A model generated the notes under the pieces. It worked only from the letters and a program-made list of their open reading frames with translations. It was not told where the DNA came from and made no database searches. From the sequence record OM355495.1: 39,496 nt of DNA; one strand, 5' to 3'. Shown piece by piece: positions 1,615 to 39,496 of this stretch; within the stretch, counting starts at the first letter, position 1; each line of letters opens with the position of its first letter. This DNA comes from Escherichia phage ZH4. A program made the translations under genes and the position numbers.

Positions 1615-4600
1615 CCTTGATGTGGATACCTTGCTCCTCAAACGTTCCCAGTAGCAACTTCTGGGTAATCGGGTCGTTCGGAACCAGTTCACGGAACGTA
1701 TTATACATCCCGGTCATGTAGTCACGCTCGTTGACACGAGTATCGGACTTGAGGTAGCCAGCCAAGTTGTAAGCCGAAGCGCCAACGTTAGCAGCATATC
1801 CGAAAGCTGGAACCTGCTCCAAGAAGTTACCAACAATATTCATCACAGGGTCACTTGTAGCCGCACCATACGCGATGGCACGTTCAGGCTTCTCTGTAGG
1901 CGAACGAGGTAGGATAGACGAACGGAGCAGCTTAGTGTCCTCGTACCCAGCGATACCACCCAGAATGTTAGCTACCCCAAGTGGTCCACCGAGATGTGAA
2001 CTACGTGATAGAGCCGCATATCCAATCATCGTCGGGTCCAGAGCTTGCTTGAGGTAGTCACGGTCTCGACCATCCTGCATAGCGTAGGCCTTGACATGCG
2101 CCTGAGCCATGTAGTAGATGCCAGCAAGACCCATAGAGATCACAGTTGACAGAGCAGCGTCCATCGCTCGGTTGTTCTTCGTGGCGTTATAGAAGGTTCG
2201 CATGGTACGTCCATTGATAGACTTGATGACGAAGTTCTTAAACTGGAGGACAGTCTTAGCGAGAGGACCGTAAGCCTTGGCGTCCATGTTTGACAGCTTA
2301 TGAGGCCGGAGTAACGTTTCGTCAGCGATGGTGTCACCCATACGCCACAAGTCCATAGCCCTTGGGTCCTGACTGAACGCCTTCTTATCCTTGATCGTGT
2401 ACTTCCCGTCTGGACCACGCGTCACTGACTCACGGATTAGGGACTTAATACCCTTCCACTGCTCGTCAGAGATACCAGCGGTCTTCAGCCAGCGGTCATC
2501 GAACTTACGCTTACTGCCAGTCAGACTATGCTCCACGATGTCAGACAGGAAGCCTTGACGCCCAGCATCTAACAGGTAGTTTGTCGTACCGTTGAGGACT
2601 TTAGTGAACGGAGAGCGTACTGCAAGTTCACCAGTGTAATACTTGGCAGAGCCTAAAGCCGTAGCCGTAGGTTTACTCAGGGAGCTGTAAGCTCGGAGGC
2701 GGTCTATAACATCCTGTTTAGACGGACGGATTGAGTCATCCAGTTCCTTACCGAAGATAACATTGTGCAGGTCCTTAATCTCTGAGGCCCCGACCTTCTT
2801 GTTACGGAAGGCTAGGTCACGGAAAATCGGGACTCCATGTAGCAGTGCACGAACGTTACCACGAGCCAGCATACCACCAATCTCCGTTAAGTTCTGAACA
2901 CCCATGTAGGCATTCTTAGCGAAGAACGATAGGTCTGTCATTGTGCGCATAACTGTAGCGAAGGCTGCATCGTCAGCACCATCACGTCGAGCACGACCAG
3001 TGAGAATTTTCAAGGTGTCACGTAAGGTAGATACCTCACCTTTCAACTTGCCGTCATCACCAGCCTTGTTCATCATGGTCTCAACCAAATCCTTCATGTC
3101 CTTCGTTGTCTTGCCTGTACCAGCCATGATAGCAATGTCACCATTAACTCGACGGTTGTAGGCCGGGACAATCTTGTCCATGTCCCACTCACGTAGACTA
3201 TTTACGCTGAAAGCCTTACCATTAGGCAGGATTATTTCCATGTCGTTATCGAACAGGTTGCGAGCCTCAAGGAAGTTATTGTTCTCCAGACCGACCAGAC
3301 CGTTGATGTTTTCTTCCATTACGGATGAACGCTCAAACTGCTCTGTATGGGAGATACCATAAGCCTTATCATTAGCATACTTCTCTACCATATCCATAGT
3401 CACCTCTGGTGCTGCTTGAGATGCGTTACCAGATGTAGTTTCACCAGCAGTAGGGGCCTGATCATCTACAGCAGTCTTCTGCCCTTTGGCAGCTGCCGCA
3501 GCCGCTTCAGCTTCAGTTGTTGCTTTGGTGATTCTGTCTCGGACCTTATCAGCCTGTCCTTTCATGTAGTCGAGACGCTCGGTGTTAATACGGACGTGAG
3601 ACTTCTGGGTCTCAATCATCTGCTTCCGACTCTCAATCTTAACAGGAATGGTCTTGCTCTTAGGCTTAGCAGCTAGCTTTTCTTCCAACTCCTTCAGCTT
3701 AGCTTCATGAGAAGCCAGTCGGTCCTTGGAGTTCTGGAGTTTCTTTTCACGGTCTGCAACTCGCTTCTCAGCGTTGGTAAGTACGTCTTTGAGCTCAGCT
3801 ACCTTATCAATTGCCTGTGTAGCAGCATCGTCCAGTTTCATCTGGTCACGGGCTGTGTTTACAGAAGAACGAGGATTTGGTGCAGTACCCACAGTCTTAC
3901 CTGCTGCTGGTTGAGATGACCGTAACTGCTCTGCTAACATCTCGTCCACTCGCGCCTTGACTTCAGGTCTTGACGCATAGCTTGTCAGCCATGACTTCTT
4001 GATTGCCTCCTGTAATGCCTCTGGGCTTCCAAGCTCCTTGATATAAAGCTGCTTCATCTGAGAACTATAGACTACAGGAACGTAGGTCCCCTTGAATCTA
4101 CTACCCGGAAAGATAGACTGAGCGTCTGTACGGCCAAACATCGCTGGGTTCTCCATCATCTCGCGCTTTGCATCAAACTGGTTCTTCAGCAGGTCATAGA
4201 CTTTCAGTTCCCCCGGAGTAAGTTCAGTCTTCAGGTTTCCGCTACCATCTTCAATCGCCAAAGCTACGCGCTTATAAACATCCTCACGCAGAGCTGAGTT
4301 ATCTCGCCAGAATGCTGTCTGGAAGTATGGGTCCTTGAGCGCCTCAGTAACCGCATCGTCGATGTCGTTGTAGAACCGATGGTCCACAGCACGAAGTCTC
4401 TCGAATACGTCTGACGCAGTGGTCCCGATTTTACCTGAGGCCCCTGACTGCATACCAGTCGGTGAACGCACTAAGTCAGCAGCGACTCCACGAATCTCAG
4501 GGTTCTCAGACCGAAGCAGCTTCAGGCCAATCTCAGTCAGGCCGCCAAGGTTAACACCAGCAGCGGCACGTTCAGGCTCAATCACTTCGTCAAAGACCTG

Positions 4601-5998
4601 ACGTGTCCTAGGATTCAGAGGGTTCTCACCAATCAGGATTGAACCATCTTCGAGTCGTACACTACCCGGCTCGTTCGGAACGTCAGCGAACCTAACTCCT
4701 TGATGACTAAAGGTCTGCTCACCTTCCTGAATAGGGAGACGAGACAGGTCCTGACCGTCAACGTTACGGGCTGTCTCGCGAGCTTCCAGACGTGTAGCTG
4801 GACCAGCGAACTCGTTAGTGTTACGACCTAAGGCTCTGCCTAAGCCATCAGCGATAGCAGTCATACCACCACCGAAGAGAGCACCACCAAGGATAGCTTC
4901 AGCCACATGAGCGTCACCACCAGCCACTGAGGTACGGGCCATCTCAGACACACCAGCCAGTGCTCCAGTTTGAGCAGCCACGGTGAACATCTTGTTTACC
5001 AGCTTACCCCCTTTACCAACCTGTCCAGCGATAGGAACGTAGGTCAGAGGGTCTACACCAGCACCAATCACACCAGCAGCTAACTGGGCACCAGTCCCAG
5101 CCTTGGCCTTCTCTTGGTCCAACTTCTGGTTCTCAAGAGCCAAGTTAATAAGCTCGGTCAGGTTCTGAGGAGACCCGCCAGTAAGGACCCCATAATACTG
5201 AGGCAGAACCCCAGCGTTACGAATCTGGTCCAGCTCCTCGCGAGTCCACTTATGGTTGTTCCATCTGGTAGGGTTAAACACATCGCCAATGACATCCAGT
5301 GAGTCCTCGGTCTGACCAGCGCGGATAGCCACGCCGACCATAGAGTTCTTCACTTCAGCTTCTGTAGCCGAACCGAAACCGAACCATGTAGAGCGGTCCT
5401 CTCGTTCCTGCATGGTATCGCCGGTAGCCTTATAGAACATCTCACCGAACGATTCGTTGGGAGCTTCAGGTGCTTGACCCTCAATATTCAGACCAGCAGC
5501 GGTCGGAAGGTTCTCACCCAGAGCTACTTTAGGTTTAGCCTTGAGTCCTTCCGTGAGTGCGTCAAATACGTTAGCGCTTACTGGTGGAGTCTTTGGGCTA
5601 ATGCCATTGAGTGCTCGTGCGACTCCCTTCTGATAGACTTCAGGGTCGTACCGGGAGCCTGTCTCATGGAAGCTGATAGCTTGAGCCAGAGAAGACAGGG
5701 TGTCAGGGTCCGAAAGGTCGAGACTCTGGGTAGCTGGAATACCAGTTGCAGCCACCACTGAGTCAATATAAGCCTTAGTGTCGTTCTCGTTAGGAGGCGC
5801 CCATCGGTTGATAATCTTCTCGATGGAGTCATAGCCTTGGCGACCGTAACTTAATAAGTTCTTACCCAAGGCCCGCACACCAGACTCTGGGCTATCAAAT
5901 ATTACAAACTCCCCATCATCGCCAATAGCTCCTTCCCATTGGTCCTTAGACTTACGGATATTTCCGGGGTTCGAATTTCTTATACCACGTGTTGCCAT
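1610..5998 (-). CDS. Internal virion protein D (T7 gp16 homolog), 1462 aa, with non-T7 N-terminal domain
   Basis: Track ORF; central and C-terminal regions align with T7 gp16 (e.g. MENPAMFG...SIFPGSRFKGTYVPVVY, NAYMGVQNLTEIGGM). RBS GGAG upstream of ATG. N-terminus (MATRGIRNSNPGNIR...) does not resemble the T7 SLT domain. Confidence 0.9.
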   Translation of the reverse strand: MATRGIRNSNPGNIRKSKDQWEGAIGDDGEFVIFDSPESGVRALGKNLLSYGRQGYDSIEKIINRWAPPNENDTKAYIDSVVAATGIPATQSLDLSDPDTLSSLAQAISFHETGSRYDPEVYQKGVARALNGISPKTPPVSANVFDALTEGLKAKPKVALGENLPTAAGLNIEGQAPEAPNESFGEMFYKATGDTMQEREDRSTWFGFGSATEAEVKNSMVGVAIRAGQTEDSLDVIGDVFNPTRWNNHKWTREELDQIRNAGVLPQYYGVLTGGSPQNLTELINLALENQKLDQEKAKAGTGAQLAAGVIGAGVDPLTYVPIAGQVGKGGKLVNKMFTVAAQTGALAGVSEMARTSVAGGDAHVAEAILGGALFGGGMTAIADGLGRALGRNTNEFAGPATRLEARETARNVDGQDLSRLPIQEGEQTFSHQGVRFADVPNEPGSVRLEDGSILIGENPLNPRTRQVFDEVIEPERAAAGVNLGGLTEIGLKLLRSENPEIRGVAADLVRSPTGMQSGASGKIGTTASDVFERLRAVDHRFYNDIDDAVTEALKDPYFQTAFWRDNSALREDVYKRVALAIEDGSGNLKTELTPGELKVYDLLKNQFDAKREMMENPAMFGRTDAQSIFPGSRFKGTYVPVVYSSQMKQLYIKELGSPEALQEAIKKSWLTSYASRPEVKARVDEMLAEQLRSSQPAAGKTVGTAPNPRSSVNTARDQMKLDDAATQAIDKVAELKDVLTNAEKRVADREKKLQNSKDRLASHEAKLKELEEKLAAKPKSKTIPVKIESRKQMIETQKSHVRINTERLDYMKGQADKVRDRITKATTEAEAAAAAAKGQKTAVDDQAPTAGETTSGNASQAAPEVTMDMVEKYANDKAYGISHTEQFERSSVMEENINGLVGLENNNFLEARNLFDNDMEIILPNGKAFSVNSLREWDMDKIVPAYNRRVNGDIAIMAGTGKTTKDMKDLVETMMNKAGDDGKLKGEVSTLRDTLKILTGRARRDGADDAAFATVMRTMTDLSFFAKNAYMGVQNLTEIGGMLARGNVRALLHGVPIFRDLAFRNKKVGASEIKDLHNVIFGKELDDSIRPSKQDVIDRLRAYSSLSKPTATALGSAKYYTGELAVRSPFTKVLNGTTNYLLDAGRQGFLSDIVEHSLTGSKRKFDDRWLKTAGISDEQWKGIKSLIRESVTRGPDGKYTIKDKKAFSQDPRAMDLWRMGDTIADETLLRPHKLSNMDAKAYGPLAKTVLQFKNFVIKSINGRTMRTFYNATKNNRAMDAALSTVISMGLAGIYYMAQAHVKAYAMQDGRDRDYLKQALDPTMIGYAALSRSSHLGGPLGVANILGGIAGYEDTKLLRSSILPRSPTEKPERAIAYGAATSDPVMNIVGNFLEQVPAFGYAANVGASAYNLAGYLKSDTRVNERDYMTGMYNTFRELVPNDPITQKLLLGTFEEQGIHIKD

Positions 5999-6429
5999 GT
6001 CTTTCTCCTTAAGATATTTCTAATAGAAACCGTACTCACTCCATAGGAACTAGCTAGGAATGAAACCTTTAGGCCGCTAGACCGTATGTTCTTCACATCA
6101 GTCTCTGTCAATTTGGATACTCCTATTGAGCTTCCAGACGCTTGACGACCTCTTTCCACCTTGTCTTTAATGTTGTCAGCCTGAGTTCCAGCCTCAAGAT
6201 GGTCAGGGTTTATGCAGGACGGATTGTCGCACTTATGGCGTACAACATACCCTTCAGGTATAGGACCACTGGCAAGCTCATAAGCTAGTCGATGTGCTCT
6301 ATACTTAACTCTGTTAATCATTATCGTACCATAACCGTCAGAATCTACGGTCCCAGTGAATCGGATACAGCCAGAGCTTTCAGCTACTGACAATTCTGCC
6401 AGTCTCTCACTGGCTGTCCCGTTCTTCAT
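5980..6429 (-). CDS. HNH homing endonuclease (intact), 149 aa
   Basis: HNH motif VVRHKCDNPSCINPDHLEAG plus a C-terminal DNA-binding-like segment KLTETDVKNIR...STVSIRNILRRKTW; RBS GGAG upstream; inserted between gp15 and gp16. Confidence 0.85.
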   Translation of the reverse strand: MKNGTASERLAELSVAESSGCIRFTGTVDSDGYGTIMINRVKYRAHRLAYELASGPIPEGYVVRHKCDNPSCINPDHLEAGTQADNIKDKVERGRQASGSSIGVSKLTETDVKNIRSSGLKVSFLASSYGVSTVSIRNILRRKTWQHVV

Positions 6430-9799: not shown

Positions 9800-9822
9800 A
9801 GTCCCTATAGTGATAGTTAAGG
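9800..9822 (-). promoter_or_regulatory. Phage RNAP promoter (phi13-like), minus sense CCTTAACTATCACTATAGGGAC, +1 near 9805
   Basis: Consensus match in the intergenic region between gene 12 stop (9847) and gene 13 start (9770). Confidence 0.8.
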
Positions 9823-9846
9823 TAAATCTATAGGCCATTCAATAAG

Positions 9847-12204
9847 TTAGACGGAACGAGCTTTCTTAGCGTATGACGCCTCCCAGCCACACCCAACGAT
9901 TGACACTGGGGTAGGATAGTCGGACTCTAAGGTTAGACTCGTGGTTAATGCGTTACCATTCATAGCGAAGCGATACTGCCCGTCACCAATGTTTGTAGTC
10001 CCGATGGTTTGCTGACCAAGGGTGTACCCATTAAAGGTGTTCACGAACTCCCGCTCACCGTTTCTGACAATTAGTCTCAGAGCACCAGTGTCCTTGTAGT
10101 TGACCCAAGCCCGACGAAGCTGTAGGCGACCAGTGTCTTCGGACTGAGTTCCACTATCATCTTCAATCTTAATCAGGAACCGTGAAAACTTGTAGGACAT
10201 CAGATAAGGCCGCCCGATGAACACTGTGCGTCCTGACCAATCGCCGTTGAGGATAACCACAGAAGAGATACTGGTCAAGTACCCAAGGTCAACATAGGCA
10301 CCCTGACTGTCAATCAGATAGTACCTACCGGGAGACGGAGCGTTGCCACCATAAGCAGCACCAATGTCAACCGTAGTCTTATAGGTGTCAGCATTATATG
10401 AGCCAATTGGAATTACCATAGACACCTTGGAGTCAATGTGTAGTCTATATGGCTCTGACGGGAAGTCAGTTGCCTCCTTGATGAACTTAAGGTGCTCAAG
10501 GTCCACTCCGCCTTGGTGCTGACGAACGATGAACATGGTAGAGCCGATAGAAGCAGACGCCAGAATCTTATCATCTTTAGGGAACTCCCAGTGTGACCAA
10601 GATGCTTGAAGCTGTACGCCATCCTTAAACAAGAACTTATAGATGTAGATTCGGTTGTATGCACCTGTAGAGTTGACGCAGATGTAGTTCTCAGTACCTG
10701 TACCTTGAATATCGAACACCCCGTTAGGGATGTAGGACAGTACGTGACCAGTTGTATCATCGGCATCCTTCACATCAGACACATCGGCTACAGCGAAGTA
10801 TCGCTTAATGCTGGTGAATGACCCCCGAGGAGCTGAGAAGAAGACTGAGCGTCCTACAGCGAACGGTCTGGCATTCTCGCCTAAGGCAAACTCTGAGCCT
10901 ACATCGAGCTGGATAGACTTCGAGGTAAGGATCCCAGAGCTCGTCATCACGAACTGAACCTCATCCGACCAAAGTAGTAGCTGCTCACTAAACGGAACGG
11001 CATACTTAAGGATTGAGATTCGAGGGTGACTTACAGCTACATCAATAGGGTCATCATCACTCAGTGTCGCCACACTCTTAGGGAAGAACGCAAAGTAGCT
11101 TGCTGAACGGCTCATTATTACGTTCTCGCCAGACAAGAACCCAAGTCTGTTCCTGTAGAAGAACACATCATTAATCGCAGCATCCACGAAGCTAGGCATA
11201 GGGTTTGTGTCATCGTTACCAGCACCACGTTTTGACCAATCCAGAGTCTTAAACTCAAAGGATCCATCAGGCTGTCTGACCAGAGCATGTGGCATTGTGG
11301 TGACATCAAAACCAGTGACAACTCCCGGCTCCACTGTCTCCTTCCACGTCTTAGTGTTGGAGTCATACATCACGTAGTATTCATCGGAGCTACTGTTTGT
11401 CTCACCTTGAATCTTAATGATATACCCATTAGGAGCGGCAAGAGGTAGTTTAGAGATTGTCTGCACAGTGTCTAGGACTGGGCTTATTAGCTGGTTAGCG
11501 TATCCATCCTCCGTCTCCACTGAGTTAATATCGGTCCCTGAAGGAGCTGTGATTAGCAGGAAGCCAGACCCAAGGTCAAACGTGAAGTCAGGATAGGCAG
11601 CAACAAGAAGGTCTCTCAGAGCTGAACCAATGGCTTGAGCGTCCACCTTAGGTGGGTCATTCTCGGCATCATTACCTGCTGGTAGCTTATGCGAGACCTT
11701 AACGCCACCGTTGATTCCCACCTTAAGGGTTCGACCATACTGTCCACCACGAAGGTTAATTAAAGCTCGTGATTTGCGGTTATAACCAGAGTGTGACTTC
11801 TCGCTTCCACCTTTGACGACAACCTTACGGTTAACGACGAACGTATAGTCTGCCACGGTAACGACACGGATGTCATCTCGTGGGTTGGAGGACTTAACGT
11901 AGTCTACCACACCAGACACTAAGTATTGCTTACCACTCAAGTCAACTACCTGAATGTTGTACCCGTTGAACACGATGTAATACTGCTCATGCTCGTCACG
12001 GTTAATCAGGTGGAACTTAGGGTTACTCCCAACGTCGATGTTAAGACGTCTCTTGAAGACTGTAGGTGGGCGCTTCTGTAGGCCATCACTCTCGGATGAC
12101 CAGCAGTTAACCTGTGCCTCGCCTTGGTCTGAGAACCTCAGTATGTCAGGCTGCTGGCTAATGCCACCTTTAAGATTTTTGATTGATTGAGTAATTAGTG
12201 GCAT
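9847..12204 (-). CDS. Tail tubular protein B (T7 gp12 homolog), 785 aa
   Basis: N-terminus MPLITQSIKNLKGGISQQPDILRFSDQG... versus T7 MALISQSIKNLKGGISQQPDILRYPDQG; conserved throughout (HLINRDEHEQYY, RLQLRRAWVNY, IVGCGWE). Confidence 0.95.
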   Translation of the reverse strand: MPLITQSIKNLKGGISQQPDILRFSDQGEAQVNCWSSESDGLQKRPPTVFKRRLNIDVGSNPKFHLINRDEHEQYYIVFNGYNIQVVDLSGKQYLVSGVVDYVKSSNPRDDIRVVTVADYTFVVNRKVVVKGGSEKSHSGYNRKSRALINLRGGQYGRTLKVGINGGVKVSHKLPAGNDAENDPPKVDAQAIGSALRDLLVAAYPDFTFDLGSGFLLITAPSGTDINSVETEDGYANQLISPVLDTVQTISKLPLAAPNGYIIKIQGETNSSSDEYYVMYDSNTKTWKETVEPGVVTGFDVTTMPHALVRQPDGSFEFKTLDWSKRGAGNDDTNPMPSFVDAAINDVFFYRNRLGFLSGENVIMSRSASYFAFFPKSVATLSDDDPIDVAVSHPRISILKYAVPFSEQLLLWSDEVQFVMTSSGILTSKSIQLDVGSEFALGENARPFAVGRSVFFSAPRGSFTSIKRYFAVADVSDVKDADDTTGHVLSYIPNGVFDIQGTGTENYICVNSTGAYNRIYIYKFLFKDGVQLQASWSHWEFPKDDKILASASIGSTMFIVRQHQGGVDLEHLKFIKEATDFPSEPYRLHIDSKVSMVIPIGSYNADTYKTTVDIGAAYGGNAPSPGRYYLIDSQGAYVDLGYLTSISSVVILNGDWSGRTVFIGRPYLMSYKFSRFLIKIEDDSGTQSEDTGRLQLRRAWVNYKDTGALRLIVRNGEREFVNTFNGYTLGQQTIGTTNIGDGQYRFAMNGNALTTSLTLESDYPTPVSIVGCGWEASYAKKARSV

Positions 12205-12213
12205 AGGCCCTCC

Positions 12214-12441
12214 TTAAATCATACTCATTAGGACGTATCCTTCAGCGATGTCACCAACGTCAGCAATGTGGATAACCTTACGAGCTACCTGTTGTCCAGT
12301 ATACCCGTTGTCCCACTCATTCAGGATAAGCCAATCGCCAACCTTAAAGTCCCGGTCGTTAAGTCTCAGCTCTGCTGTCTTTAGACCTAGCTGTACCGGA
12401 CCAAAGTGCTTGCGGTGAATCTTCAGGTTGTGACTAGCCAT
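12214..12441 (-). CDS. DUF3850 / ASCH-PUA-like small protein (75 aa), inserted between genes 11 and 12
   Basis: Sequence LKIHRKHFGPVQLGLKTAELRLNDRDFKVGDWLILNEWD...GYTGQQ fits the DUF3850 pattern as I remember it; RBS GGAGG; start overlaps gp11 stop (TAATG). Confidence 0.65.
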   Translation of the reverse strand: MASHNLKIHRKHFGPVQLGLKTAELRLNDRDFKVGDWLILNEWDNGYTGQQVARKVIHIADVGDIAEGYVLMSMI

Positions 12442-13007
12442 TAGTCCCTCCCGATGTCAGACATCATGTTGTAGCGACCAGTGTCCATCTCGTACTCCAT
12501 AACCTGCTGATAGAGTTCTGCTTCCTGCTCACGAAGGTATAGCTCTGACTCTGGGCTACCGAAGAACTTAGCGTTGAACTCTCGGCTAGCTTTAGTGACG
12601 ATGTAGTCCCTGAAGACCACAGGCATCTCGGAGAATGGCTTCATCTCCACAAGCTCTACCGTGATAGGGTCGGTGAAAGTGGTTGACTGAGTGGACAGGT
12701 CGTACAGGTATCCACCCATGTTGCTGTAGTAGCTGGTGGCCCCAGCAGTCATTATCCGAAGGTATGACGGAAGGAATCGAATCCTATTGTCTTGGACATC
12801 AGGTGTCAGGACAGCAGCTTCGTTGATGTTAAAGTTCCAGCCTTTAGCTTGGACCTGACGATTGACACGATGTAGGATACGTTGAGCGTTCGAGACGTCA
12901 GCGTTCCCCTCGTCAAGCTGTAGGACTGCTGGTTCACCGATAGCAGCTAACATATCGTTGATGGCATCTAAGTCATCGTTAGCATTCAGTGGAATGTATT
13001 GAGCCAT
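12441..13007 (-). CDS. Tail tubular protein A (T7 gp11 homolog), 188 aa
   Basis: Similarity to T7 gp11 (AIGEPAV..., NAQRILHRVNRQVQAKGWNFNI, YIVTKASREFN, MEYEMD.G.YNM); RBS AGGAG. Confidence 0.9.
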   Translation of the reverse strand: MAQYIPLNANDDLDAINDMLAAIGEPAVLQLDEGNADVSNAQRILHRVNRQVQAKGWNFNINEAAVLTPDVQDNRIRFLPSYLRIMTAGATSYYSNMGGYLYDLSTQSTTFTDPITVELVEMKPFSEMPVVFRDYIVTKASREFNAKFFGSPESELYLREQEAELYQQVMEYEMDTGRYNMMSDIGRD

Positions 13008-13026: not shown

Positions 13027-13068
13027 GCAAAAAACCCCTCAAGCACCCGAAGGCACCCAAGGGGTTTC
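13027..13068 (-). terminator. T-phi-like intrinsic terminator after gene 10 (minus sense AACCCCTTGGGTGCCTTCGGGTGCTTGAGGGGTTTTTTG)
   Basis: GC-rich hairpin with UUCG loop followed by a U6 run, immediately after the predicted 10B stop; closely resembles T7 T-phi (CCCCTTGGGGCCTCTAAACGGGTCTTGAGGGGTTTTTTG). Confidence 0.85.
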
Positions 13069-13070
13069 AA

Positions 13071-14245
13071 TTAGTTGTTGGACTCAGCCAGTTTAGCGGC
13101 CCTGTTCGCAGCACGAGTACGCGCAGCTTTCTGTTGGGGAGTTAGAGTCTCCTCTTCAGGTGCAGCCGCTACTGTAGCGACGTTAGGTTGGCTAAAGGTG
13201 CTTACGCCGCTGGGCTGAAAACCAGTGCGCCAGCCGCTTCAGGACGCAGACCACCGTGACCCATAGCGTACTTACCAACAATCAGGTCGCCCTGAGCATC
13301 TACGTCACGGTCACGTTCCAGCGCCAAGTCACGCAGCTTCACAGTACCCACAGCAGAACGGTGAGAGAACAGACCAACAACGTTGTCCAGAGCAACTTTA
13401 ACGTCACCAGTAGCAGTAGCCGGGAATGCATGCTTCTGACCAGTCGCAATAGTGATACCATCATCACCACGAGTTTCACCAGCACCACCCTGAGTCAAGT
13501 GTGGAACTTCAACAACAACGAAGCCCATCACGTTACGGATGTTACCAGTCTCTGGGTCAATCAGCGCAGCATAGTTAGCAGCGTTCGGCATCAGAGCCGC
13601 GAGGATTGCAGAGTAGTTGTCCGGCGTGGTGTAGAAGTAACGGTCGCCAGCAGGAACGTAGTTGGAGGTCAGCTTCGCACGAGCAATGGTCAGTTGACCG
13701 ATGATTGCTTCACCCAGTTTAGCCGGGGTGTCGAGATCAGCTTTCTTACCAACTTCCAGTACGGACGCAGTACCCAGACCAGCGATGTTCTCGTTGGATG
13801 CAGCCGGTAGGTTACACAGGATAGCCATTTCAGCCAGCACCGCACCATCAGCAGCGATAGCCAGAGCTTCACCCAACTGGTTGGAATACTCGCCAGCCAC
13901 GTCATAGTGGTTCATCGCGTCTTCAATGTCGAAAATCATCACATCGGCAGTCAGCAGACCATCAATGGTAATCACTTTCTCGGTATGTTTGATACCTTTA
14001 CGCTTATCGGACAGTCGCTCACCCGGAGCCAGATACACACCAGAGGTGCGACCCATGACCGGGAACTGAGCAGACTTACCGTTCTGAATGGTACGGACAA
14101 TATGCTTGTCAGCAGTTACAGAGCGGCGAGTGAATGCGGTCAGGACTTCACCAGCAAATACCTTCAGGAACAACGCAAGAGCGTCGGAGCTGGATTTGCC
14201 TTTACCTTGGTCTGTACCAATTTTCTGACCCGGAACGTTTGCCAT
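13071..14245 (-). CDS. Minor capsid protein 10B, predicted by -1 frameshift near the end of 10A (about 395 aa)
   Basis: Slippery GGTTTTC at 13217..13223, five codons before the 10A stop. The -1 frame stays open for 52 codons (QPSGVSTFSQPNVATVAAAPEEETLTPQQKAARTRAANRAAKLAESNN) to TAA at 13071..13073, just before the terminator. Mirrors T7 10A/10B. Confidence 0.7.
13202..14245 (-). CDS. Major capsid protein 10A (T7 gp10A homolog), 347 aa
   Basis: Very strong similarity to T7 gp10A (GKSAQFPV.GRT, HTEKVITIDGLLTADV, AALMPNAANYAALIDPE, HRSAVGTVKLRDLALER, KYAMGHGGLRPEAAGA); RBS GGAG. Confidence 0.97.
   Translation of the reverse strand: MANVPGQKIGTDQGKGKSSSDALALFLKVFAGEVLTAFTRRSVTADKHIVRTIQNGKSAQFPVMGRTSGVYLAPGERLSDKRKGIKHTEKVITIDGLLTADVMIFDIEDAMNHYDVAGEYSNQLGEALAIAADGAVLAEMAILCNLPAASNENIAGLGTASVLEVGKKADLDTPAKLGEAIIGQLTIARAKLTSNYVPAGDRYFYTTPDNYSAILAALMPNAANYAALIDPETGNIRNVMGFVVVEVPHLTQGGAGETRGDDGITIATGQKHAFPATATGDVKVALDNVVGLFSHRSAVGTVKLRDLALERDRDVDAQGDLIVGKYAMGHGGLRPEAAGALVFSPAA
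13217..13223 (-). other. Putative -1 programmed ribosomal frameshift site (GGTTTTC) for capsid 10B
   Basis: Heptamer in codons CTG GTT TTC, same position and sequence class as the T7 gene 10 frameshift site. Confidence 0.65.
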
Positions 14246-14347: not shown

Positions 14348-14370
14348 TCTCCCTATAGTGATAGTTTAGT
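14348..14370 (-). promoter_or_regulatory. Phage RNAP promoter (phi10-like), minus sense CTAAACTATCACTATAGGGAGA, +1 near 14353
   Basis: Perfect consensus copy upstream of the major capsid gene. Confidence 0.85.
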
Positions 14371-14371
14371 C

Positions 14372-15256
14372 CTACAGGCTTGAGGCAGCTACCTTAGCGC
14401 GAACTTCCATCGTGTACTTAGTGTCACGCAGGTATCGCGGGTCACTCATAGCCTTAATCATGTCAGCCTTGGAGCTGAATGCTTCGGTCTGAGGAGCCTT
14501 AGGTGCGACCACAGGTTTAGCCTGAGTGGTGATGGTACGCTGAGGTTTAACACCCACAGCTTTACCCAGAGTCTTGCCAGCCAGATTCAGCAGAGCTTTG
14601 GTAGTAGCAATGTCCTTACGAACGATAGCAGCTTCAAGTGCTTCACGAGTCGACGGGTCATTGGACTCAAGGTGAGACAGGATGCGATTAAACTGTTCAG
14701 CACCACCAGCGTAGCGAACCACACCAGCAGCATACTGTTCAGCCAGTGCTTCCTGACCACGGACAAACGAATCTACGAAACGCTTGGTGTAGCCTGCTTC
14801 CTGCAACTTAGCGTAGGATGCGTCAGACAGCTTACCGTCCTTGGCGTATTCAGCCTTGATAGCGGTAATTTCATCAGCAGTGACCTTGCCAGCTTCTACA
14901 GCAGAATACACCATGTCGTCGAATGCAGCTTCGTTTTCATCCAGAGCGGTGACACTTTCGGTCAGCTCTTTTGGTGCATCACCCAGTTCGATGAACTCAG
15001 ACTGCTCACCATCGGGCTCAGACTCTTCGTCATCTGACTCTTGGTCTTCTTCACCTTCAGTCTCTTCGACGTTTTCGTCTTCTTCGGTCGCCTCTTCGTT
15101 TTCGGCTTCCAGTTGCTTGAAGGTAATAGCGTCATCGCCATCGCGAACAGCTACGTCCTGTTCAAGCATAGACTTCTGGTGTTCGTTCAGGTCCTCAACG
15201 GAACCAGTGATTGCATTAGAGCTAACGCCGAACTCGGCATAAACTGATTGAGACAT
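14372..15256 (-). CDS. Capsid assembly / scaffolding protein (T7 gp9 homolog), 294 aa
   Basis: Highly acidic protein between portal and capsid genes; RBS GGAG; position and composition as T7 gp9. Confidence 0.85.
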   Translation of the reverse strand: MSQSVYAEFGVSSNAITGSVEDLNEHQKSMLEQDVAVRDGDDAITFKQLEAENEEATEEDENVEETEGEEDQESDDEESEPDGEQSEFIELGDAPKELTESVTALDENEAAFDDMVYSAVEAGKVTADEITAIKAEYAKDGKLSDASYAKLQEAGYTKRFVDSFVRGQEALAEQYAAGVVRYAGGAEQFNRILSHLESNDPSTREALEAAIVRKDIATTKALLNLAGKTLGKAVGVKPQRTITTQAKPVVAPKAPQTEAFSSKADMIKAMSDPRYLRDTKYTMEVRAKVAASSL

Positions 15257-15343: not shown

Positions 15344-15366
15344 TGTTCCTATAGTGATAGTTTAGG
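15344..15366 (-). promoter_or_regulatory. Phage RNAP promoter (phi9-like), minus sense CTAAACTATCACTATAGGAAC, +1 near 15349
   Basis: Consensus copy overlapping the portal gene stop, upstream of the scaffold gene. Confidence 0.8.
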
Positions 15367-16930
15367 CTTGCGCCATGTCCTCACCAGCTCCCTGACCTAC
15401 AGCAGCGCCCATGTTAGCACCAGCAGCAGACGCACCGTTGACCACAGCTCCTTGAGCGGATTGTTCAGCAATACGTTGCATCTTCTCGTCCTGAGTCAGC
15501 AGAAGACCAGCAGTGTCAATGCCTAAGGCATTCAGCAGTCGCAGCTTCAGGGTCGGCAAGTTGATGTCTGGATCCTGAGAGAGCTGCTGAAGACCAGTCA
15601 TCATGTTGACTGCCTGAGTCAGCTTCTCCAAGTCCTGGCCACGGCCCAGAGCTTCCAGACCAGTTGAGACCGTAGGCTCTACCGCTTCTTTCGGAAGGTC
15701 AGGAATCATGCCAGCAGACTGAAGCTGGTTCATCAACACACGGACGATAGGTAACTGAAGCTCTTGTGACTGTACTGAGTACACGCCACCTAAGGTCGCC
15801 TCCAGTTCGCCAGCAACATAACGAATCTCTTCAGCAGTGACTCGCTCAGCATTACGCTGAACAGCACTATTAAGAAGGAAGGCCCAGCCTAAACGTTGCT
15901 CGATAGCGTCAGCCACCGACTTGGCAATCGTAAAGTCCTGACCCTTCGTCAGTTGCAGGAAGTTGATGTCCTCAACGCGACCAGCCACGAACTCACCTGT
16001 AGCCGCCTTGTTCAGACGTCGAGGTTGCGTGATACCGTTCGGGTTAACGAGGCCCACCACCTTGGAGGCTACCTTAGCCATTTTGGTGATAGCTTCTGTA
16101 ATCGTCTCCAGCGAGTTCAGGTCTCCAAGATACTCCTCGCAGTAAGAACGACCATAGTCTTCACCATCCAGTCGAACCATTCGTACCGGGATGTACGGAC
16201 ATGCAGTCAGTGGATAAGAACCATCGGTCCCTGTTACCTCAATGCCTTCCACTTCCTCGTAGCGTAGATACTCGTCGTCCTGACGGTAGATGTGCGTATA
16301 CACTTCCAACTCGGTGTCAGGCTCATAGTCGTCTGCGTTGAGTTGAGACTTCACGTCTTCCGGTAGAGCACTAAACGCTACCTTGTCGAGAGTCACAATC
16401 TGCAAGATGTTACCGAAAGCATCACGTTGAACAACGTAGGACGTTAAGCGATACATACGCATCGGGCTGTAAGTTCCCTGTTCAGGCTCTGGAATGTAGA
16501 GAAGACAGTTACCGGAGACGATAAGCTGCTTCAGAGCTTCGAACAGTGGCACACGGAAACTGTTTGTCTCCATGTAGGCCATCAACACACGCTCGACCAT
16601 AGCCAACCCTTCGTCAACACGAGCAGCAGCCTCTGAGTCCTGACTCAAGGTCTTGGCCTCATATTCGGAGACTGTCAGTCGCATCCACGGTGACTGAGGA
16701 AATAATGCCAACATCAGCTTTGCAGCCAAGTTGTTCAAACAGCGAGCACCTACAGCTTGCCACGGAGTCGTGTATTCCGTAGACGAGTTGTCGGACTCCT
16801 TAGGAAATAGTGACGGGATAGTGACAGCAGCACAGTTCTGAGCTCGCGTCTCATATGGCTGTCTACCGTTCTTCAGTCGGTCATAGACCGCTTTGGCTCC
16901 TTCAGCAGCGAACCCTTCACGTTCAGCCAT
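15362..16930 (-). CDS. Portal (head-to-tail connector) protein (T7 gp8 homolog), 522 aa
   Basis: Strong similarity to T7 gp8 (YETRAQNCA, TPWQAVGAR.LNNLA.KLMLALFP, YRLSSYVVQRDAFGN, CPYIPVRMVRLDGE.YGRSY.EEYLGDL); RBS AGGAGG. Confidence 0.97.
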   Translation of the reverse strand: MAEREGFAAEGAKAVYDRLKNGRQPYETRAQNCAAVTIPSLFPKESDNSSTEYTTPWQAVGARCLNNLAAKLMLALFPQSPWMRLTVSEYEAKTLSQDSEAAARVDEGLAMVERVLMAYMETNSFRVPLFEALKQLIVSGNCLLYIPEPEQGTYSPMRMYRLTSYVVQRDAFGNILQIVTLDKVAFSALPEDVKSQLNADDYEPDTELEVYTHIYRQDDEYLRYEEVEGIEVTGTDGSYPLTACPYIPVRMVRLDGEDYGRSYCEEYLGDLNSLETITEAITKMAKVASKVVGLVNPNGITQPRRLNKAATGEFVAGRVEDINFLQLTKGQDFTIAKSVADAIEQRLGWAFLLNSAVQRNAERVTAEEIRYVAGELEATLGGVYSVQSQELQLPIVRVLMNQLQSAGMIPDLPKEAVEPTVSTGLEALGRGQDLEKLTQAVNMMTGLQQLSQDPDINLPTLKLRLLNALGIDTAGLLLTQDEKMQRIAEQSAQGAVVNGASAAGANMGAAVGQGAGEDMAQA

Positions 16931-17196: not shown

Positions 17197-17593
17197 GATT
17201 AATCTCCTTAATTGTTACGATGTCTACCGACCCTGAAACATGCTTGACACGAGAATACCAGCTAAGACCCCAACGCTTGCACTCTTCGTCTATGATGTGC
17301 CTGACAGTCTCAAGAACCTTGCGGGAGGACTGCGAGTCACGACGAATAGCGACGATTGAAAGGTCAATACCGGGAGTCGGTCGGTGCCAAGATGCGGTAG
17401 CCAGCATGTAGAGATACGCTACTGGTTGACCTGATACATCGTAGATTGTGTATTCTTCACCGTCGAACTCGTCAGCCATACGGTAGGTATGAGCCTTGAA
17501 GTCCTCGAATGACTTGAAGTTAGACTGCCCGTCTTCCCAGAGGCGACAAGCGCACATGTGGCGACCTTCGCGTGAGTTGAGATATGGTAGCAT
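17189..17593 (-). CDS. T7 gp7-position protein (virion/host-range protein), 134 aa
   Basis: Track ORF between genes 6.7 and 7.3; assignment is positional, with size similar to T7 gp7. Confidence 0.55.
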   Translation of the reverse strand: MLPYLNSREGRHMCACRLWEDGQSNFKSFEDFKAHTYRMADEFDGEEYTIYDVSGQPVAYLYMLATASWHRPTPGIDLSIVAIRRDSQSSRKVLETVRHIIDEECKRWGLSWYSRVKHVSGSVDIVTIKEINRG

Positions 17594-18170: not shown

Positions 18171-18193
18171 AGTCCCTATAGTGATAGTTTAGT
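18171..18193 (-). promoter_or_regulatory. Phage RNAP promoter (phi6.5-like), minus sense CTAAACTATCACTATAGGGACT, +1 near 18176
   Basis: Consensus copy between exonuclease stop and gene 6.5 start; likely start of late (class III) transcription. Confidence 0.85.
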
Positions 18194-18318
18194 GTTTCAC
18201 CTATGGATGACTGTGGATTGATAGGATATGACTATCGGCTAGACTCAGTGTTTAGGCCGGTTGTTCGACCCGAACCACTTGTACATGCAGTAAAGGGCCA
18301 GAAGTCCGACCCAGTAAA

Positions 18319-24099: not shown

Positions 24100-24122
24100 A
24101 ATCCCTAAGGTGATAGTTTAGG
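24100..24122 (-). promoter_or_regulatory. Variant phage RNAP promoter upstream of gene 4 (minus sense CTAAACTATCACCTTAGGGAT)
   Basis: Matches the consensus except -3/-2 (CT instead of TA); located between the 71-aa ORF stop and the gene 4 start. Probably weaker. Confidence 0.55.
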
Positions 24123-24333
24123 CTTTGAAGAACTGAGCCAACTGTTCAGCTTTGGTGTCAGCTTGACGTGCTTTCATGCCAGCTTCCAGTGACGCGATGG
24201 TCAGCTTGTCAGCCAGAGCAGCAGCATCAGCCGCACCATCAGCAGTCTTCTTTTCTACCTTTCGCTCCAGTACCGCAGCACGACGATAACCACGAACCAC
24301 CAGACGACCAAGAAATTCGATAAGTTTAATCAT
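24118..24333 (-). CDS. Hypothetical protein, 71 aa (between genes 3.5 and 4)
   Basis: Track ORF; alanine/lysine-rich predicted helical protein; no confident homolog recognised. Confidence 0.5.
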   Translation of the reverse strand: MIKLIEFLGRLVVRGYRRAAVLERKVEKKTADGAADAAALADKLTIASLEAGMKARQADTKAEQLAQFFKA

Positions 24334-24818: not shown

Positions 24819-25191
24819 TTATTTCCACCTCTTGTGGTTCCTGATTCGACTTATGGTTGTCTCACTTACTGAGTATTTTTCAGCCATAAACTTAAGGGTC
24901 TCGCTTGAGGTGCGAATATCCTTAACGTCATCTTCAGTTAGTTTTGAATTAAATGTCCTGCGTACTGAGCAGTCCATCATGTTTTCTGCCTGAGTCCCCC
25001 AACTCAAGGTGCTCAATGTTTACGCATGCACGGTTATCACACTTGTGTCTTACGACAAGACCTCCCGGTATAGCACCATTGGTCTCTATCCAAGCGGCTC
25101 TATGAGCACCCATAGATTGGCCACGGAATTTACGTCTACCATAGCCATCCTTATTGCGACTCTTAGCCCACTCGATGCAGTCACTTTCCAT
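24819..25191 (-). pseudogene. HNH homing endonuclease disrupted by +1 frameshift in a C5 (minus G5) homopolymer at 24996..25000
   Basis: Track ORF 24949..25200 carries the HNH motif (VVRHKCDNRACVNIEHLELG) and track ORF 24819..25016 carries the C-terminal segment (KLTEDDVKDIR...TISRIRNHKRWK). Removing one G from GGGGG restores ...HLELGTQAENMMD..., collinear with the intact paralog at 5980..6429. Confidence 0.75.
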
Positions 25192-25621
25192 TATAAACAA
25201 CGAGCTCTACTACGACCAGATTCAGATGTGACTGGAAGCGCTGTGCGTCAGTCGTGTGCATCTGGAGCAACTTATGGTTGAAGACGTGTGAGTTGCTGAT
25301 CTTCACGTAAACTTCTTCAGGCTTTCCGTGGACGATGAACGTCTGGCCTACACCAATCTTGTCGATGGTCAGGACTTCACGTTTAACGGTGACAGGAGGG
25401 ACGCTTGAGGCTGGCAGGACTTGTGGTTGACCGTCCTCTTTGATGGTATACAGCTGCTTCTGAAGGCTATTATTAACCCCTTCAAAGTAGGATAGCCCAA
25501 GGGTACACGTTTCACCATTTCCCCAGCGACCTGTGGTTCCATTAGTCTCAAACACTAGAGGGTCACTGACCGTTCCTGTAACTGTTACAGGGAACTTGTA
25601 ACCTTTTGCTTTCTGAGTCAT
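25181..25621 (-). CDS. Hypothetical protein, 146 aa (orphan ORF between endonuclease I and the HNH/lysozyme genes)
   Basis: Track ORF with RBS GGAG and ATGA overlap with the gene 3 stop; Thr/Val/Gly-rich; no T7 counterpart recognised. Confidence 0.6.
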   Translation of the reverse strand: MTQKAKGYKFPVTVTGTVSDPLVFETNGTTGRWGNGETCTLGLSYFEGVNNSLQKQLYTIKEDGQPQVLPASSVPPVTVKREVLTIDKIGVGQTFIVHGKPEEVYVKISNSHVFNHKLLQMHTTDAQRFQSHLNLVVVELVVYNGK

Positions 25622-26811: not shown

Positions 26812-26834
26812 CTGTCCTACAGTGATAGTTTAGG
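26812..26834 (-). promoter_or_regulatory. Variant phage RNAP promoter (phi2.5-like), minus sense CTAAACTATCACTGTAGGACA
   Basis: Consensus with one change at -2 (G for A); overlaps the gp2 stop, upstream of SSB. Confidence 0.65.
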
Positions 26835-26988
26835 TCTCAGGACGGATACGTCCGACCACAAACCCAGCGTCCTCATACTCTTGGGACTTCAGGGTAGCCT
26901 CTTCAAGAGACTTTGCGTACACCGGAACCTCGAAGGACTGAACGCGACCCTCAAGCTCAACGATGTATTTCTTCTCAACCTCAGTCAT
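26830..26988 (-). CDS. Host RNA polymerase inhibitor (T7 gp2 homolog), 52 aa
   Basis: Own translation [52 protein letters not shown]; [14 protein letters not shown] matches T7 gp2 SFEVPIYAETLDEA; RBS GGAG. Below the track 60-aa cutoff. Confidence 0.75.
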
Positions 26989-27075
26989 AAACCGCGCTCC
27001 TTCCATAAGTTGTAGAGCTGAAGGTAATCTACGTTACCTGTCTCTTCAAATTTACGCTCGCACCATTCACTCGGT

Positions 27076-28062: not shown

Positions 28063-28085
28063 TTGTCCTATAGTGATAGCTTAGG
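28063..28085 (-). promoter_or_regulatory. Phage RNAP promoter (phi1.5/1.6-like), minus sense CTAAGCTATCACTATAGGACA, +1 near 28068
   Basis: Consensus with a single change in the upstream part; located after the TE-like terminator, before gene 1.6. Confidence 0.75.
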
Positions 28086-28119
28086 GTCATGCTGGTCCCC
28101 AAACGATAGCTTGCTAGCA

Positions 28120-29776: not shown

Positions 29777-29797
29777 ATCCTATAGTGATAGTTTAGG
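29775..29797 (-). promoter_or_regulatory. Phage RNAP promoter (phi1.1-like), minus sense CTAAACTATCACTATAGGATTAG, +1 near 29780
   Basis: Consensus copy upstream of genes 1.1-1.3. Confidence 0.8.
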
Positions 29798-29872
29798 GTT
29801 AACCTCTTCTGCGTTGGATTAAAGTGAATACTGCTAGTGCTCCCAGCCAAAAGGCCAGTAACTGTAGGTCTG

Positions 29873-32836: not shown

Positions 32837-32859
32837 GAGTCCTATAGTGATAGTTAAGT
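32837..32859 (-). promoter_or_regulatory. Phage RNAP promoter directly upstream of the RNAP gene (minus sense CTTAACTATCACTATAGGACTC, +1 near 32842)
   Basis: Near-perfect consensus copy about 75 nt upstream of the gene 1 ATG; the leader contains tandem AAGUGAAAGAC repeats and an AAGGA RBS. Confidence 0.7.
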
Positions 32860-32864
32860 CAGAA

Positions 32865-33496: not shown

Positions 33497-33646
33497 TCAC
33501 TCAGTGTGCGAACTGTCGTACATGCTATTGCGGACCTCATAGACCACTTTCAAGAGACGCATAGCCGCATCGTGGTTTAACTGCCCAGTCTTGACCATAA
33601 TCCGGGCGTAGGTGACGTGGTGCTGGCAGAGACCATAAGTTACCAT
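33497..33646 (-). CDS. Small ORF, 49 aa, translationally coupled to Ocr (TAATG overlap)
   Basis: Own translation [49 protein letters not shown]; no RBS evaluated; low confidence. Confidence 0.3.
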   Translation of the reverse strand: MVTYGLCQHHVTYARIMVKTGQLNHDAAMRLLKVVYEVRNSMYDSSHTE

Positions 33647-34152
33647 TACTCGCAGTCCTCGTCAGCCGCAGGGTCGAACACTACGTTATCGTCGATGTCT
33701 TCGACTTTCAGGTGGCGACCTATCACATAGTGATCCTTGGCACATGCAGTAGCGACCTCAAGAGACACAGCTTGCTCAATGAGTACACCTGTCTTAGCGT
33801 CGACTACCCAATACTCATCCTCCTCGTCGCTCTCTTCAGCCTCAAACCATACCACATCCGAGCTATTAGACACGTCGTTATAAAGCGCCTCATAGATGCG
33901 AGCTTGCAGTATACGCGTTACGTCCTTGGTCTCAGGCATCAGCCCAGAGTCCTCAAACTCATGGTCTATACCATCAGCAGCCATCACCGTAAAAATCTCG
34001 TGGTAATAGTGCGGAACCTGACCGTCTACGACTTCATGCAGCGCATCGTGGTAGTCATCGCTTTCAGCTATTTCGTCGTACTGAATACGCTCGTTAAATG
34101 CTTTAACGGTTGCGGCCAGCAGCTCATAGTATGCGTTAGCGTTACGTTCCAT
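33646..34152 (-). CDS. ocr: Ocr-like DNA-mimic anti-restriction protein (T7 gp0.3 homolog) with a C-terminal extension, 168 aa
   Basis: [66 protein letters not shown] matches T7 Ocr ([66 protein letters not shown]). First gene after the host promoters. About 50 extra C-terminal residues beyond the acidic tail. Confidence 0.9.
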
Positions 34153-35639: not shown

Positions 35640-35662
35640 CTTCCCTATAGTGATAGTTAAGT
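35640..35662 (-). promoter_or_regulatory. Phage RNAP promoter (phiOR-like) downstream of terminase, minus sense CTTAACTATCACTATAGGGAAGA, +1 near 35645
   Basis: Consensus copy about 95 nt after the large terminase stop, preceding the 19.5-like ORF and the genome end region. Confidence 0.8.
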
Positions 35663-35756
35663 CCAAACTCCTTGTAAAACAGTAGGTTAGACTGGTAGTA
35701 ACTATAGGTTACTAACCGCGTATTCATGCAGCTTTCACCCATAGTTATTCATTCAG

Positions 35757-38657: not shown

Positions 38658-39496
38658 TTAATTTGATATTTGTTTCCAGTCAGAACTAGTCAACCCGTGT
38701 GACTTCCACCATGAGTTAGCGCTGTCACTCCATACTTCTTGCCCTATAAAGCGAGGAATTACTGTAGCTACAGGAGTAGGGCCGGATACAACTTGATACC
38801 CATACTTAGCTGGTCCTATAGCATTGTTCAAGATAAAATCTTTAGTTATTCCTCTTGCGCCATTAAACCACTCTAGATCCGTACCGCTAATACCGCTAAT
38901 AAACTCAGGTGAAAACTTAGTGAAACTGCAGCCAGCGTTCACTCGTGCCCCGTTGTAAGCGCTATATCCACTAGCCTGCGTGTTGCTCCAGCGACCACCA
39001 ACCACACTACCGTTGCTGCAATTTAAGAAGTACGCAGCATATCTAGCGAAACCTTCCAGGTTAACGTTTACAAGCTCAAATCCTGATGCACCATTGCACT
39101 GGATGCCATCATTGTTCGGTACACCACTTGTTGCTATTTGTGGGTTAGAGGCATACCCAGTTAAATTTGCACCATTAATAAAAATGCCGGTATTGGTATT
39201 CGCACCAAAGTATATACCAACTCCAGAGCAGTTCTGAACACTCAGGTTATTGATACGAATACCACTGGCATAGTTGAAACTGATAGCTCGTTCAGCCGCA
39301 CGCACACTCCTGTACCCAAAACCAATATCACGAAGGCGTATGTTACTCATAGTGATGTTAGCTGGGTTCATGCCTTGTGTTTCCGATTCAAACCCTTCAA
39401 ACGTTATTCCATTGCCACAGTTTGTAGCTATGACATTATCCACAACAATGTCAGCAACATAGCGTTTGAATCCCATAGCTCCATGAGCACAGTCCC
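38658..39496 (-). CDS. Tail fiber / tailspike (gene 17), C-terminal part with right-handed beta-helix (pectate-lyase-like) domain; continues upstream across the window junction (39370..39496 duplicates 1..127)
   Basis: Track ORF 38658..39476 is in frame with the minus-strand ORF from 1544. Repeated beta-helix-like rungs ([48 protein letters not shown]) typical of phage tailspike depolymerases. Confidence 0.85.
   Translation of the reverse strand, partial: DCAHGAMGFKRYVADIVVDNVIATNCGNGITFEGFESETQGMNPANITMSNIRLRDIGFGYRSVRAAERAISFNYASGIRINNLSVQNCSGVGIYFGANTNTGIFINGANLTGYASNPQIATSGVPNNDGIQCNGASGFELVNVNLEGFARYAAYFLNCSNGSVVGGRWSNTQASGYSAYNGARVNAGCSFTKFSPEFISGISGTDLEWFNGARGITKDFILNNAIGPAKYGYQVVSGPTPVATVIPRFIGQEVWSDSANSWWKSHGLTSSDWKQISN
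39370..39496. repeat. 127-bp exact duplicate of window positions 1..127 (circular-assembly overlap, lies inside gene 17)
   Basis: Direct comparison of the window ends; ORF-track coordinates confirm an offset of 39,369. Confidence 0.9.

Follow-up and report, generated by a model that had tools for sequence, protein, structure and literature searches.

A DUF3850 gene at the gene 11/12 tail junction in Escherichia phage ZH4 and other Kayfunavirus phages

Nineteen ASCH proteins, including the Glu-type ('GKER') group, are reported to take ac4C off tRNA (2026 preprint 10.64898/2026.02.27.708502). According to the same preprint the Lys and the Glu/Thr of the ASCH octapeptide are essential, with a change from Glu to Asp being tolerated in EOLA1, and a contrary structural study is described, as cited there, as having found Glu-type ASCH proteins without ac4C deacetylase activity. 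For the related DUF3850 family (Pfam PF12961) the only solved member is PDB entry 3IUW, a structural-genomics entry for an Enterococcus faecalis ‘activating signal cointegrator’. The DUF3850 domain is also found in the ParB-CTPase-DUF3850 fusion proteins of prophages and ICEs, such as smu_194c of TnSmu1, whose genes stand beside parA (PNAS 2025, PMC12704722). Full-text literature searches found the family named in 7 papers, with no functional study of any DUF3850 protein among them, and they returned nothing on K1F gene 11.5 or on an activating signal cointegrator together with a tail tubular protein.

In phage T7 the tail genes 11 and 12 are adjacent, being separated by a gap of 23 nt, and the terminator Tphi is located just 5' of gene 11. 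In Escherichia phage ZH4, as in most phages of the genus Kayfunavirus, a DUF3850 gene lies between the two, although some close relatives have lost it. The gene is already known: GenBank has the exact protein at this position, and Pfam has the family. What is added here is the history of gain and loss at the junction, its transcription context, a census of the family and a negative control on a suspected link with methyltransferases.

The junction and its transcription

The window, which is the whole stretch of 39,496 nt that was analysed, comprises an entire T7-like genome of Kayfunavirus (Studiervirinae), whose genes lie on the minus strand, and between 11900 and 12800 it shares 96-97% identity with numerous Escherichia, Salmonella, Enterobacter and Klebsiella members of the genus. 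Its two ends are identical over 127 nt (1-127 and 39370-39496), a repeat that stems from an assembly overlap in a circularised or circularly permuted genome opened inside the tail-fibre (gene 17) region and not to a true end. Elsewhere the window carries two free-standing HNH endonuclease genes, both probably homing endonucleases, at 5980-6429 and 24949-25200 on the minus strand (Pfam HNH_3, E 1.8e-16 and 1.1e-13), the former being wedged between the internal virion genes 15 and 16. A homologue of the DNA mimic Ocr (gene 0.3) of 168 aa is encoded at 33646-34152 on the minus strand (Pfam ocr, E 1.2e-31); it exceeds the 101-position ocr profile, the match being limited to residues 8-96. The features of the junction and of its surroundings are listed below.

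12214..12441, minus strand: DUF3850 coding sequence, 75 aa, single domain (ORF with Pfam, PHROG, PDB, AlphaFold2 and Foldseek matches)
12441..13007, minus strand: gene 11, tail tubular protein A, upstream neighbour (Pfam Tube, E 8.5e-46)
9847..12204, minus strand: gene 12, tail tubular protein B or nozzle, downstream neighbour (Pfam Phage_nozzle, E 0)
12446..12452, minus strand: Shine-Dalgarno GGGAGGG of the DUF3850 gene, 4 nt from its ATG (from the sequence)
12208..12216, minus strand: TAAGGAGGG, where the DUF3850 stop codon and the gene 12 Shine-Dalgarno are fused (from the sequence)
13028..13067, minus strand: Tphi-like intrinsic terminator between genes 10 and 11, a 17-bp GC-rich hairpin with a U run, in the same place as Tphi in T7
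14351..14373, minus strand: phi10-like phage RNA polymerase promoter before gene 10, the nearest upstream (repeat family)
9803..9825, minus strand: phi13-like phage promoter before gene 13, the next downstream (repeat family)
1595-1617, 9803-9825, 14351-14373, 15347-15369, 18174-18196 and 24103-24125, minus strand: copies of the phage promoter (repeat family)
26815-26837, 28066-28088, 29778-29800, 32840-32862 and 35643-35665, minus strand: further copies of the phage promoter (repeat family)

The ORF, which starts with ATG in the ORF list of the window, is fitted closely to its neighbours on both sides. At its start, TAATG at 12439-12443 forms the gene 11 stop codon overlapping the initiation codon, and the coding strand across the boundary reads ...GAC ATC GGG AGG GAC TAATG GCT AGT..., with the Shine-Dalgarno GGGAGGG built into the final codons of gene 11 (GGG AGG GAC TAA). 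To judge from this arrangement, gene 11 and the DUF3850 gene appear to be translationally coupled. At its other end the ORF reads ...ATG ATT TAAGGAGGGCCTATG, and thus its stop codon falls inside the ribosome-binding site of gene 12; the TAA (12214-12216) is the first part of TAAGGAGGG and the gene 12 ATG follows at 12202-12204. An earlier note on this DNA had described a 75-aa ORF with a strong ribosome-binding site placed between two genes that adjoin each other in T7, and the ORF, the GGGAGGG 4 nt before its ATG, the Tube and Phage_nozzle neighbours and the 23-nt gap of T7 all bear this out.

The phage promoter is an 11-copy repeat of 23 nt with the consensus AAACTATCACTATAGG on the minus strand. 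No copy of it lies between the phi10-like (14351-14373) and the phi13-like (9803-9825) promoters, and a scan for sigma-70 promoters gave results at chance level. The DUF3850 gene has no promoter of its own and has the Tphi-like terminator upstream of it, and hence the polymerase has to pass that terminator in order to transcribe genes 11, 11.05 and 12. On this layout the gene is predicted to be late, and its level should follow those of gp11 and gp12 rather than that of the capsid protein. Of the earlier expectation of high late expression, the timing therefore stands, whereas the high level does not fit a gene located downstream of the terminator without its own phage promoter. A second repeat family, of 21 nt (ATGACCTTGAGTCTA...), has five copies in the early and middle region. 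The 135 nt at 13068-13202 (minus strand), which follow the stop codon of gene 10 (major capsid) and precede the terminator, contain several small hairpins and may be the counterpart of the gene 10B frameshift extension of T7.

Family, fold and distribution

The 75-aa protein matches the DUF3850 profile with E 2.9e-19 (69.5 bits against a gathering cut-off of 22.9), residues 4-73 being aligned to positions 2-76 of 77, and it also matches ASCH (Pfam PF04266, PUA-like clan) with E 6.8e-6 (27.2 bits against a cut-off of 21.2). The ASCH match is confined to positions 1-61 of 103: the protein stops at residue 75, the last 42 positions of the ASCH profile are without a counterpart, and the domain is thus incomplete. 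By its sequence the protein is a truncated, minimal version of ASCH, and this accounts for DUF3850 being a separate family in Pfam. A further match is to PHROG 986, labelled ‘RNA-binding protein’ (E 3e-35, aligned at positions 95-171 of a 253-position profile), and PDB 3IUW is found with E 1.3e-10 from the single sequence and 4.5e-20 from a profile. Searches of NCBIfam and Rfam gave no meaningful match.

An AlphaFold2 model, built on an alignment of 40 sequences, has a pLDDT of 95.1 and the topology beta1(3-9), alpha1(10-17), beta2(23-27), beta3(37-43), beta4(47-61), beta5(69-74). With this model the top Foldseek match is again 3IUW (E 4e-8, TM 0.87-0.91, rmsd 1.4-1.6 A), followed by the ASCH proteins PH0355, YqfB bound to ac4C, EOLA1, TRIP4 and ZmASCH, and the matches in a viral structure library are other phage DUF3850/ASCH proteins, none of which has a known function. 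The protein is the smallest form of the ASCH/PUA-like beta-barrel. The DUF3850 and ASCH-like identity that had been proposed from the letters alone is thereby upheld, with both Pfam families above their gathering thresholds and with Pfam, PHROG, PDB, AlphaFold2 and Foldseek in agreement. The nucleic-acid-binding role attached to it is best regarded as a transferred prediction.

The ASCH octapeptide GxKxxExR is present after helix 1 as G19-L-K21-T-A-E24-L-R26, and it is present in 3IUW as well. Across 40 diverse homologues R26 never varies, and the conservation of K21 and E24 is 90% or more. The signature of DUF3850 consists of H-x-L-K near the N-terminus, G-x-K-T-x-E-L-R-x-N-D-R, G-D, and a Glu ending strand 3, and all of its residues are found in the protein (H4, K7, G19, K21, E24, R26, N28, D29, R30, G35, D36 and E42); none of them is less than 90% conserved in the 40 homologues, some being invariant, and they are common to 3IUW too. 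The pI of the protein is 6.9, compared with a family median of 5.8 and a value of 4.7 for YqfB. It is near neutral, unlike that of a basic, general nucleic-acid binder, and it lends no support to non-specific nucleic-acid binding.

The protein is identical to ULF48580.1, ‘hypothetical protein [Escherichia phage ZH4]’, and belongs to a cluster of 253 at 90% identity. By tblastn at least 154 GenBank records of Kayfunavirus-type phages have the gene at the junction with at least 80% identity, the comparison set being about 222 records with a Kayfunavirus-type gp11 (at least 60% identity), and in about 150 records the protein is 93-99% identical. Depositors have called it a hypothetical protein, an RNA-binding protein, an activating signal cointegrator, DUF3850 or gene 11.05, the names of the Kayfunavirus orthologues in these records being automatic. 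The accessory DUF3850 gene is thus ordinary for the genus and already deposited, and to call its location unexpected, as the earlier note did, was an overstatement, since this is the usual state of the genus and has been annotated before.

A profile search over 1.84 billion representatives puts the family at 17,312 clusters (50% identity) at E <= 1e-3 and 8,267 at E <= 1e-10. Many members are longer, with an N-terminal DUF3850 domain, and the partner in these long proteins is either a C-terminal DUF551 or nothing. In Guernseyvirinae the gene has DNA polymerase and helicase on its two sides; in lambdoid phages it is either flanked by NinB and NinG or close to DnaB, NinX and RusA; P2-like phages carry it next to replication gene A, and prophages have it in early-left operons. 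The closest relatives outside Kayfunavirus belong to enterobacterial siphoviruses, with 57-64% identity. In Salmonella phage KKP 3828 (Koutsourovirus) a 57%-identical DUF3850 protein is encoded at 2980-3228, with the RNA polymerase gene immediately before it and the portal gene after it; here Autographiviridae have gained the gene a second time, independently, at the point where the late region begins.

Gain, loss and replacement at the junction

Amongst close relatives in IMG/VR the DUF3850 gene is present in 13 of 24 and missing in the other 11. In phages with an empty junction (such as SH3, SH4, Dev2, GW1, SFPH2 and Ro45lw) gene 11 ends in ...ATC GGT CGA GAC TAA TAGGAGGTGATATG, and the Gly-Arg codons GGT CGA contain no Shine-Dalgarno. 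Carriers spell the same Gly-Arg-Asp as GGG AGG GAC, and this spelling supplies the Shine-Dalgarno for the inserted gene. The type phage K1F and the record L005 are without the gene, and in both codon 2 of gene 12 comes straight after the end of gene 11, GGGAG(G/A)GACTAATG. This end is of the carrier type (GGGAGGGAC or GGGAGAGAC, then TAATG), and gp11 and gp12 of these phages are 96-99% identical to those of the window, from which it follows that they lost the ORF by a precise ATG-to-ATG deletion. The loss of the gene from K1F and other relatives indicates that it is dispensable for tail building and viability.

Other phages have more at the junction and not less. In KM02 and the Hafnia phage yong1 a gene for endonuclease VII (Pfam Endonuclease_7, E 2e-20) follows the DUF3850 gene; in Escherichia phage KM02 (PQ179042.1, 24117-24796) the order is gene 11, DUF3850, a 146-aa endonuclease VII and gene 12, and a second gene of mobile type thus occupies the same junction. 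Enterobacter phage B1 has an unannotated 158-aa hypothetical ORF41 between its DUF3850 gene and gene 12. In Kayfunavirus LI10P1 (OZ035801.1, ~26915-27064) a chimeric ORF of 50 aa, which runs into gene 12, joins the first five codons of DUF3850 (MASHN) to the C-terminal 45 residues of endonuclease VII, and is a deletion scar of the arrangement with both genes. The allele of CR44b has only 45% identity to that of the window, against 83% for gp11; H4, K21, D24, R26, E42 and H58 are still present in it, and K7 and the NDR loop are gone. The retention of K21, D24, R26, E42 and H58 alongside the loss of K7 and the NDR loop raises the prospect that the specificity of this allele has changed. The empty, endonuclease, chimera, deletion and divergent states together mark the 11/12 junction as a hot spot for accessory genes, in which a gene and its ribosome-binding sites are spliced in and out of a tightly coupled operon.

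Across 13 alleles the dN/dS of the DUF3850 gene is 0.13, against 0.027 for gene 11, and the gene is therefore under purifying selection; its protein evolves about five times faster than gp11. The GC and GC3 of the ORF are in line with the genome values and hence give no signal of a recent foreign origin.

Candidate functions and comparison with known systems

The window contains many spurious ORFs of 40-70 aa, and a chance ORF or annotation artefact might be entertained on that ground; it is refuted, since the profile matches lie far over threshold, the fold is predicted with confidence, selection is purifying and orthologues number in the hundreds, and its probability is negligible. That the gene is accessory and non-structural is close to certain. 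The location inside a pair of tail genes, with translational coupling to gp11, would suit a tail-assembly factor or a protein that is packaged in the virion and ejected, and T7-like virions do carry small proteins such as gp6.7 and gp7.3. This is nonetheless highly improbable, as the gene is missing from T7, K1F, SH3, SH4, Dev2, GW1 and SFPH2, of which K1F, SH3, SH4, Dev2, SFPH2 and T7 build the same tail without it. Moreover, its homologues are found in non-structural modules (replication, nin) of sipho-, myo- and lambdoid phages, and the faster protein evolution is also at odds with a virion role. Virion mass spectrometry of the carrier phage B1 by band excision identified six proteins and missed the DUF3850 protein, gp11 and gp12 alike. 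The tail can do without the DUF3850 protein.

A neutral or selfish passenger, which would bring the phage no benefit and would owe its place to recombination of mobile genes at the 11/12 junction, finds its argument in the five states of that junction: empty, DUF3850, DUF3850 with endonuclease VII (KM02, yong1 and B1), the LI10P1 chimera and the K1F deletion. Such a passenger is unlikely, for the dN/dS of 0.13 speaks against it, as do the frame and key residues kept in alleles down to 45% identity and the ribosome-binding sites finely adapted on both sides, and the protein contains no nuclease or transposase domain. A PADLOC search for defence systems gave nothing meaningful, its best match having E 0.012 (13.7 bits), and no Pfam nuclease domain was found.

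A stronger candidate, though still given a minority chance, is a non-catalytic reader, whose barrel would bind RNA or DNA with a modified base such as N6-methyladenine and shield or mark it; in one variant progeny DNA could be protected from modification-dependent nucleases. The PUA-like relatives YTH, EVE and SRA are readers, the ASCH domain of TRIP4 has been crystallised with dsDNA (9KYL), ParB-CTPase-DUF3850 fusions are encoded beside parA, and ASCH has been predicted from methyltransferase fusions to read m6A (PMC4738411; PMC7641849). Methyltransferases (D12, MT-A70, Dam and C5 types) are also the commonest annotated neighbours in 74 DUF3850 loci outside T7-like phages: in 20 of these a DNA methyltransferase lies no more than 2.5 kb away, 7 having it directly adjacent, and three different adenine methyltransferase families stand beside one identical DUF3850 protein. 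The latter case comes from three enterobacterial prophages (L038, L039 and L040), in which an identical 84-aa DUF3850 protein precedes a 72-aa ORF, again the same in all three, and after this come PF05869 Dam, PF02086 D12 and PF05063 MT-A70, respectively; the locus looks like a site of methyltransferase swapping beside a constant pair of small genes.

Against a reader, a control anchored on NinB (80 loci, a redundant set with NinB ~81% identical) has a methyltransferase within 2.5 kb in 36 loci by BLAST and 48 by motif, and DUF3850 in only one of the 80. The co-location is hence a property of the nin/early region and gives no ground for a functional link with methyltransferases. Furthermore, no methyltransferase gene is present among the identified ORFs of the phage, a protein of neutral to acidic pI is not expected to bind nucleic acids avidly, and the conserved Lys-Glu dyad is not needed for reading. 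The low number of GATC sites also stands against a reader: there are 21 in 39.5 kb where ~154 would be expected from length alone. Strong avoidance of Dam sites is typical of T7-like phages.

The preferred reading of the locus as a whole, to which we give a little less than an even chance, is a late accessory gene for a cytoplasmic base-pocket module of ASCH type. As sequence and comparison show, a single-gene cassette entered the gene 11/12 junction in an ancestor of most Kayfunavirus phages, and the final codons of gene 11 were synonymously recoded into a Shine-Dalgarno. Transcription would come from the late phi9 and phi10 promoters by read-through of the Tphi-like terminator, and ribosomes ending gene 11 would restart at the overlapping TAATG. 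The protein would then act in the cytoplasm, where the cleft residues H4, K21, E24, R26, D29/R30 and E42 may hold an N-substituted nucleobase, be it part of a free nucleoside or a base that RNA or DNA has flipped out, and any benefit would be conditional on the host.

For the pocket itself, for a modified base or nucleoside, the chances appear evenly balanced. The intact octapeptide and the YqfB-like pI would favour a pocket for an N-substituted base, probably a hydrolytic one, over plain ‘RNA binding’, and within such a pocket the intact Lys-Glu dyad, which is essential for ac4C deacylation elsewhere, suggests that the modification is probably hydrolysed and not only bound. The CR44b allele, in spite of its 45% identity, keeps the K, D and R of the octapeptide. 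Counting against the proposal, this allele loses the NDR loop and K7, H58 and S73 are not conserved in 3IUW, the protein is without the C-terminal third of ASCH with the Glu74 region of YqfB, it shows no pairwise similarity to YqfB, and Glu-type ASCH proteins were inactive in the structural study cited by the preprint. We know of no benefit for a T7-like phage from the removal of ac4C, and functions in host takeover or counter-defence are not usually timed late. The amidohydrolase (‘eraser’) activity is put forward as a possibility that we rate well below that of the pocket. A barrel that is made late, and possibly carried in the virion, as an eraser or reader countering a modification-dependent host defence or process is improbable.

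The value of the locus is practical, as it offers the bare domain in an easily engineered T7-like phage, and the family is large and rich in phage and prophage members. The carriers, the clean deletion in K1F, the disrupted allele in LI10P1 and the highly divergent allele in CR44b form a natural set with which it can be tested directly if, in the course of infection, modified bases are bound or deacylated by minimal ASCH barrels. If the barrel is such a late eraser or reader, Kayfunavirus, with its carriers, the K1F deletion and the CR44b allele, would already provide what is needed to assign a function to a family of ~17,000 clusters.

Within the genus the closest counterparts are the orthologues of PE3-1, LM33_P1, KM02 and others, which are at the same junction under the label ‘RNA-binding protein’, and the equivalent gene of Citrobacter phage CR44b, a 45%-identical allele at the same junction that is called 11.05. 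Compared with the ParB-CTPase-DUF3850 fusions, the 75-aa protein consists of the domain alone, lacks the ParB part and has no parA beside its gene. Its identity to 3IUW is 41-43%, and H4, K7, K21, E24, R26, NDR, GD and E42 are common to both, but 3IUW has Tyr and Gly in place of the H58 and S73 that are invariant in the proteobacterial phage group. With E. coli YqfB, TthASCH (T. thermophilus) and the ASCH domains of human EOLA1 and TRIP4 the protein shares the same beta-barrel with a helix after strand 1, and the residue numbers of its octapeptide match K21/T24/R26 of YqfB. BLASTP gives no alignment between the protein and YqfB. The octapeptide is of the Glu (‘GKER’) type, with Glu24 in place of the Thr of the GKTR type to which YqfB belongs. 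Unlike the ASCH amidohydrolases, the 75-aa protein is some 30 residues shorter and is without the C-terminal helical segment that carries Glu74 in YqfB.
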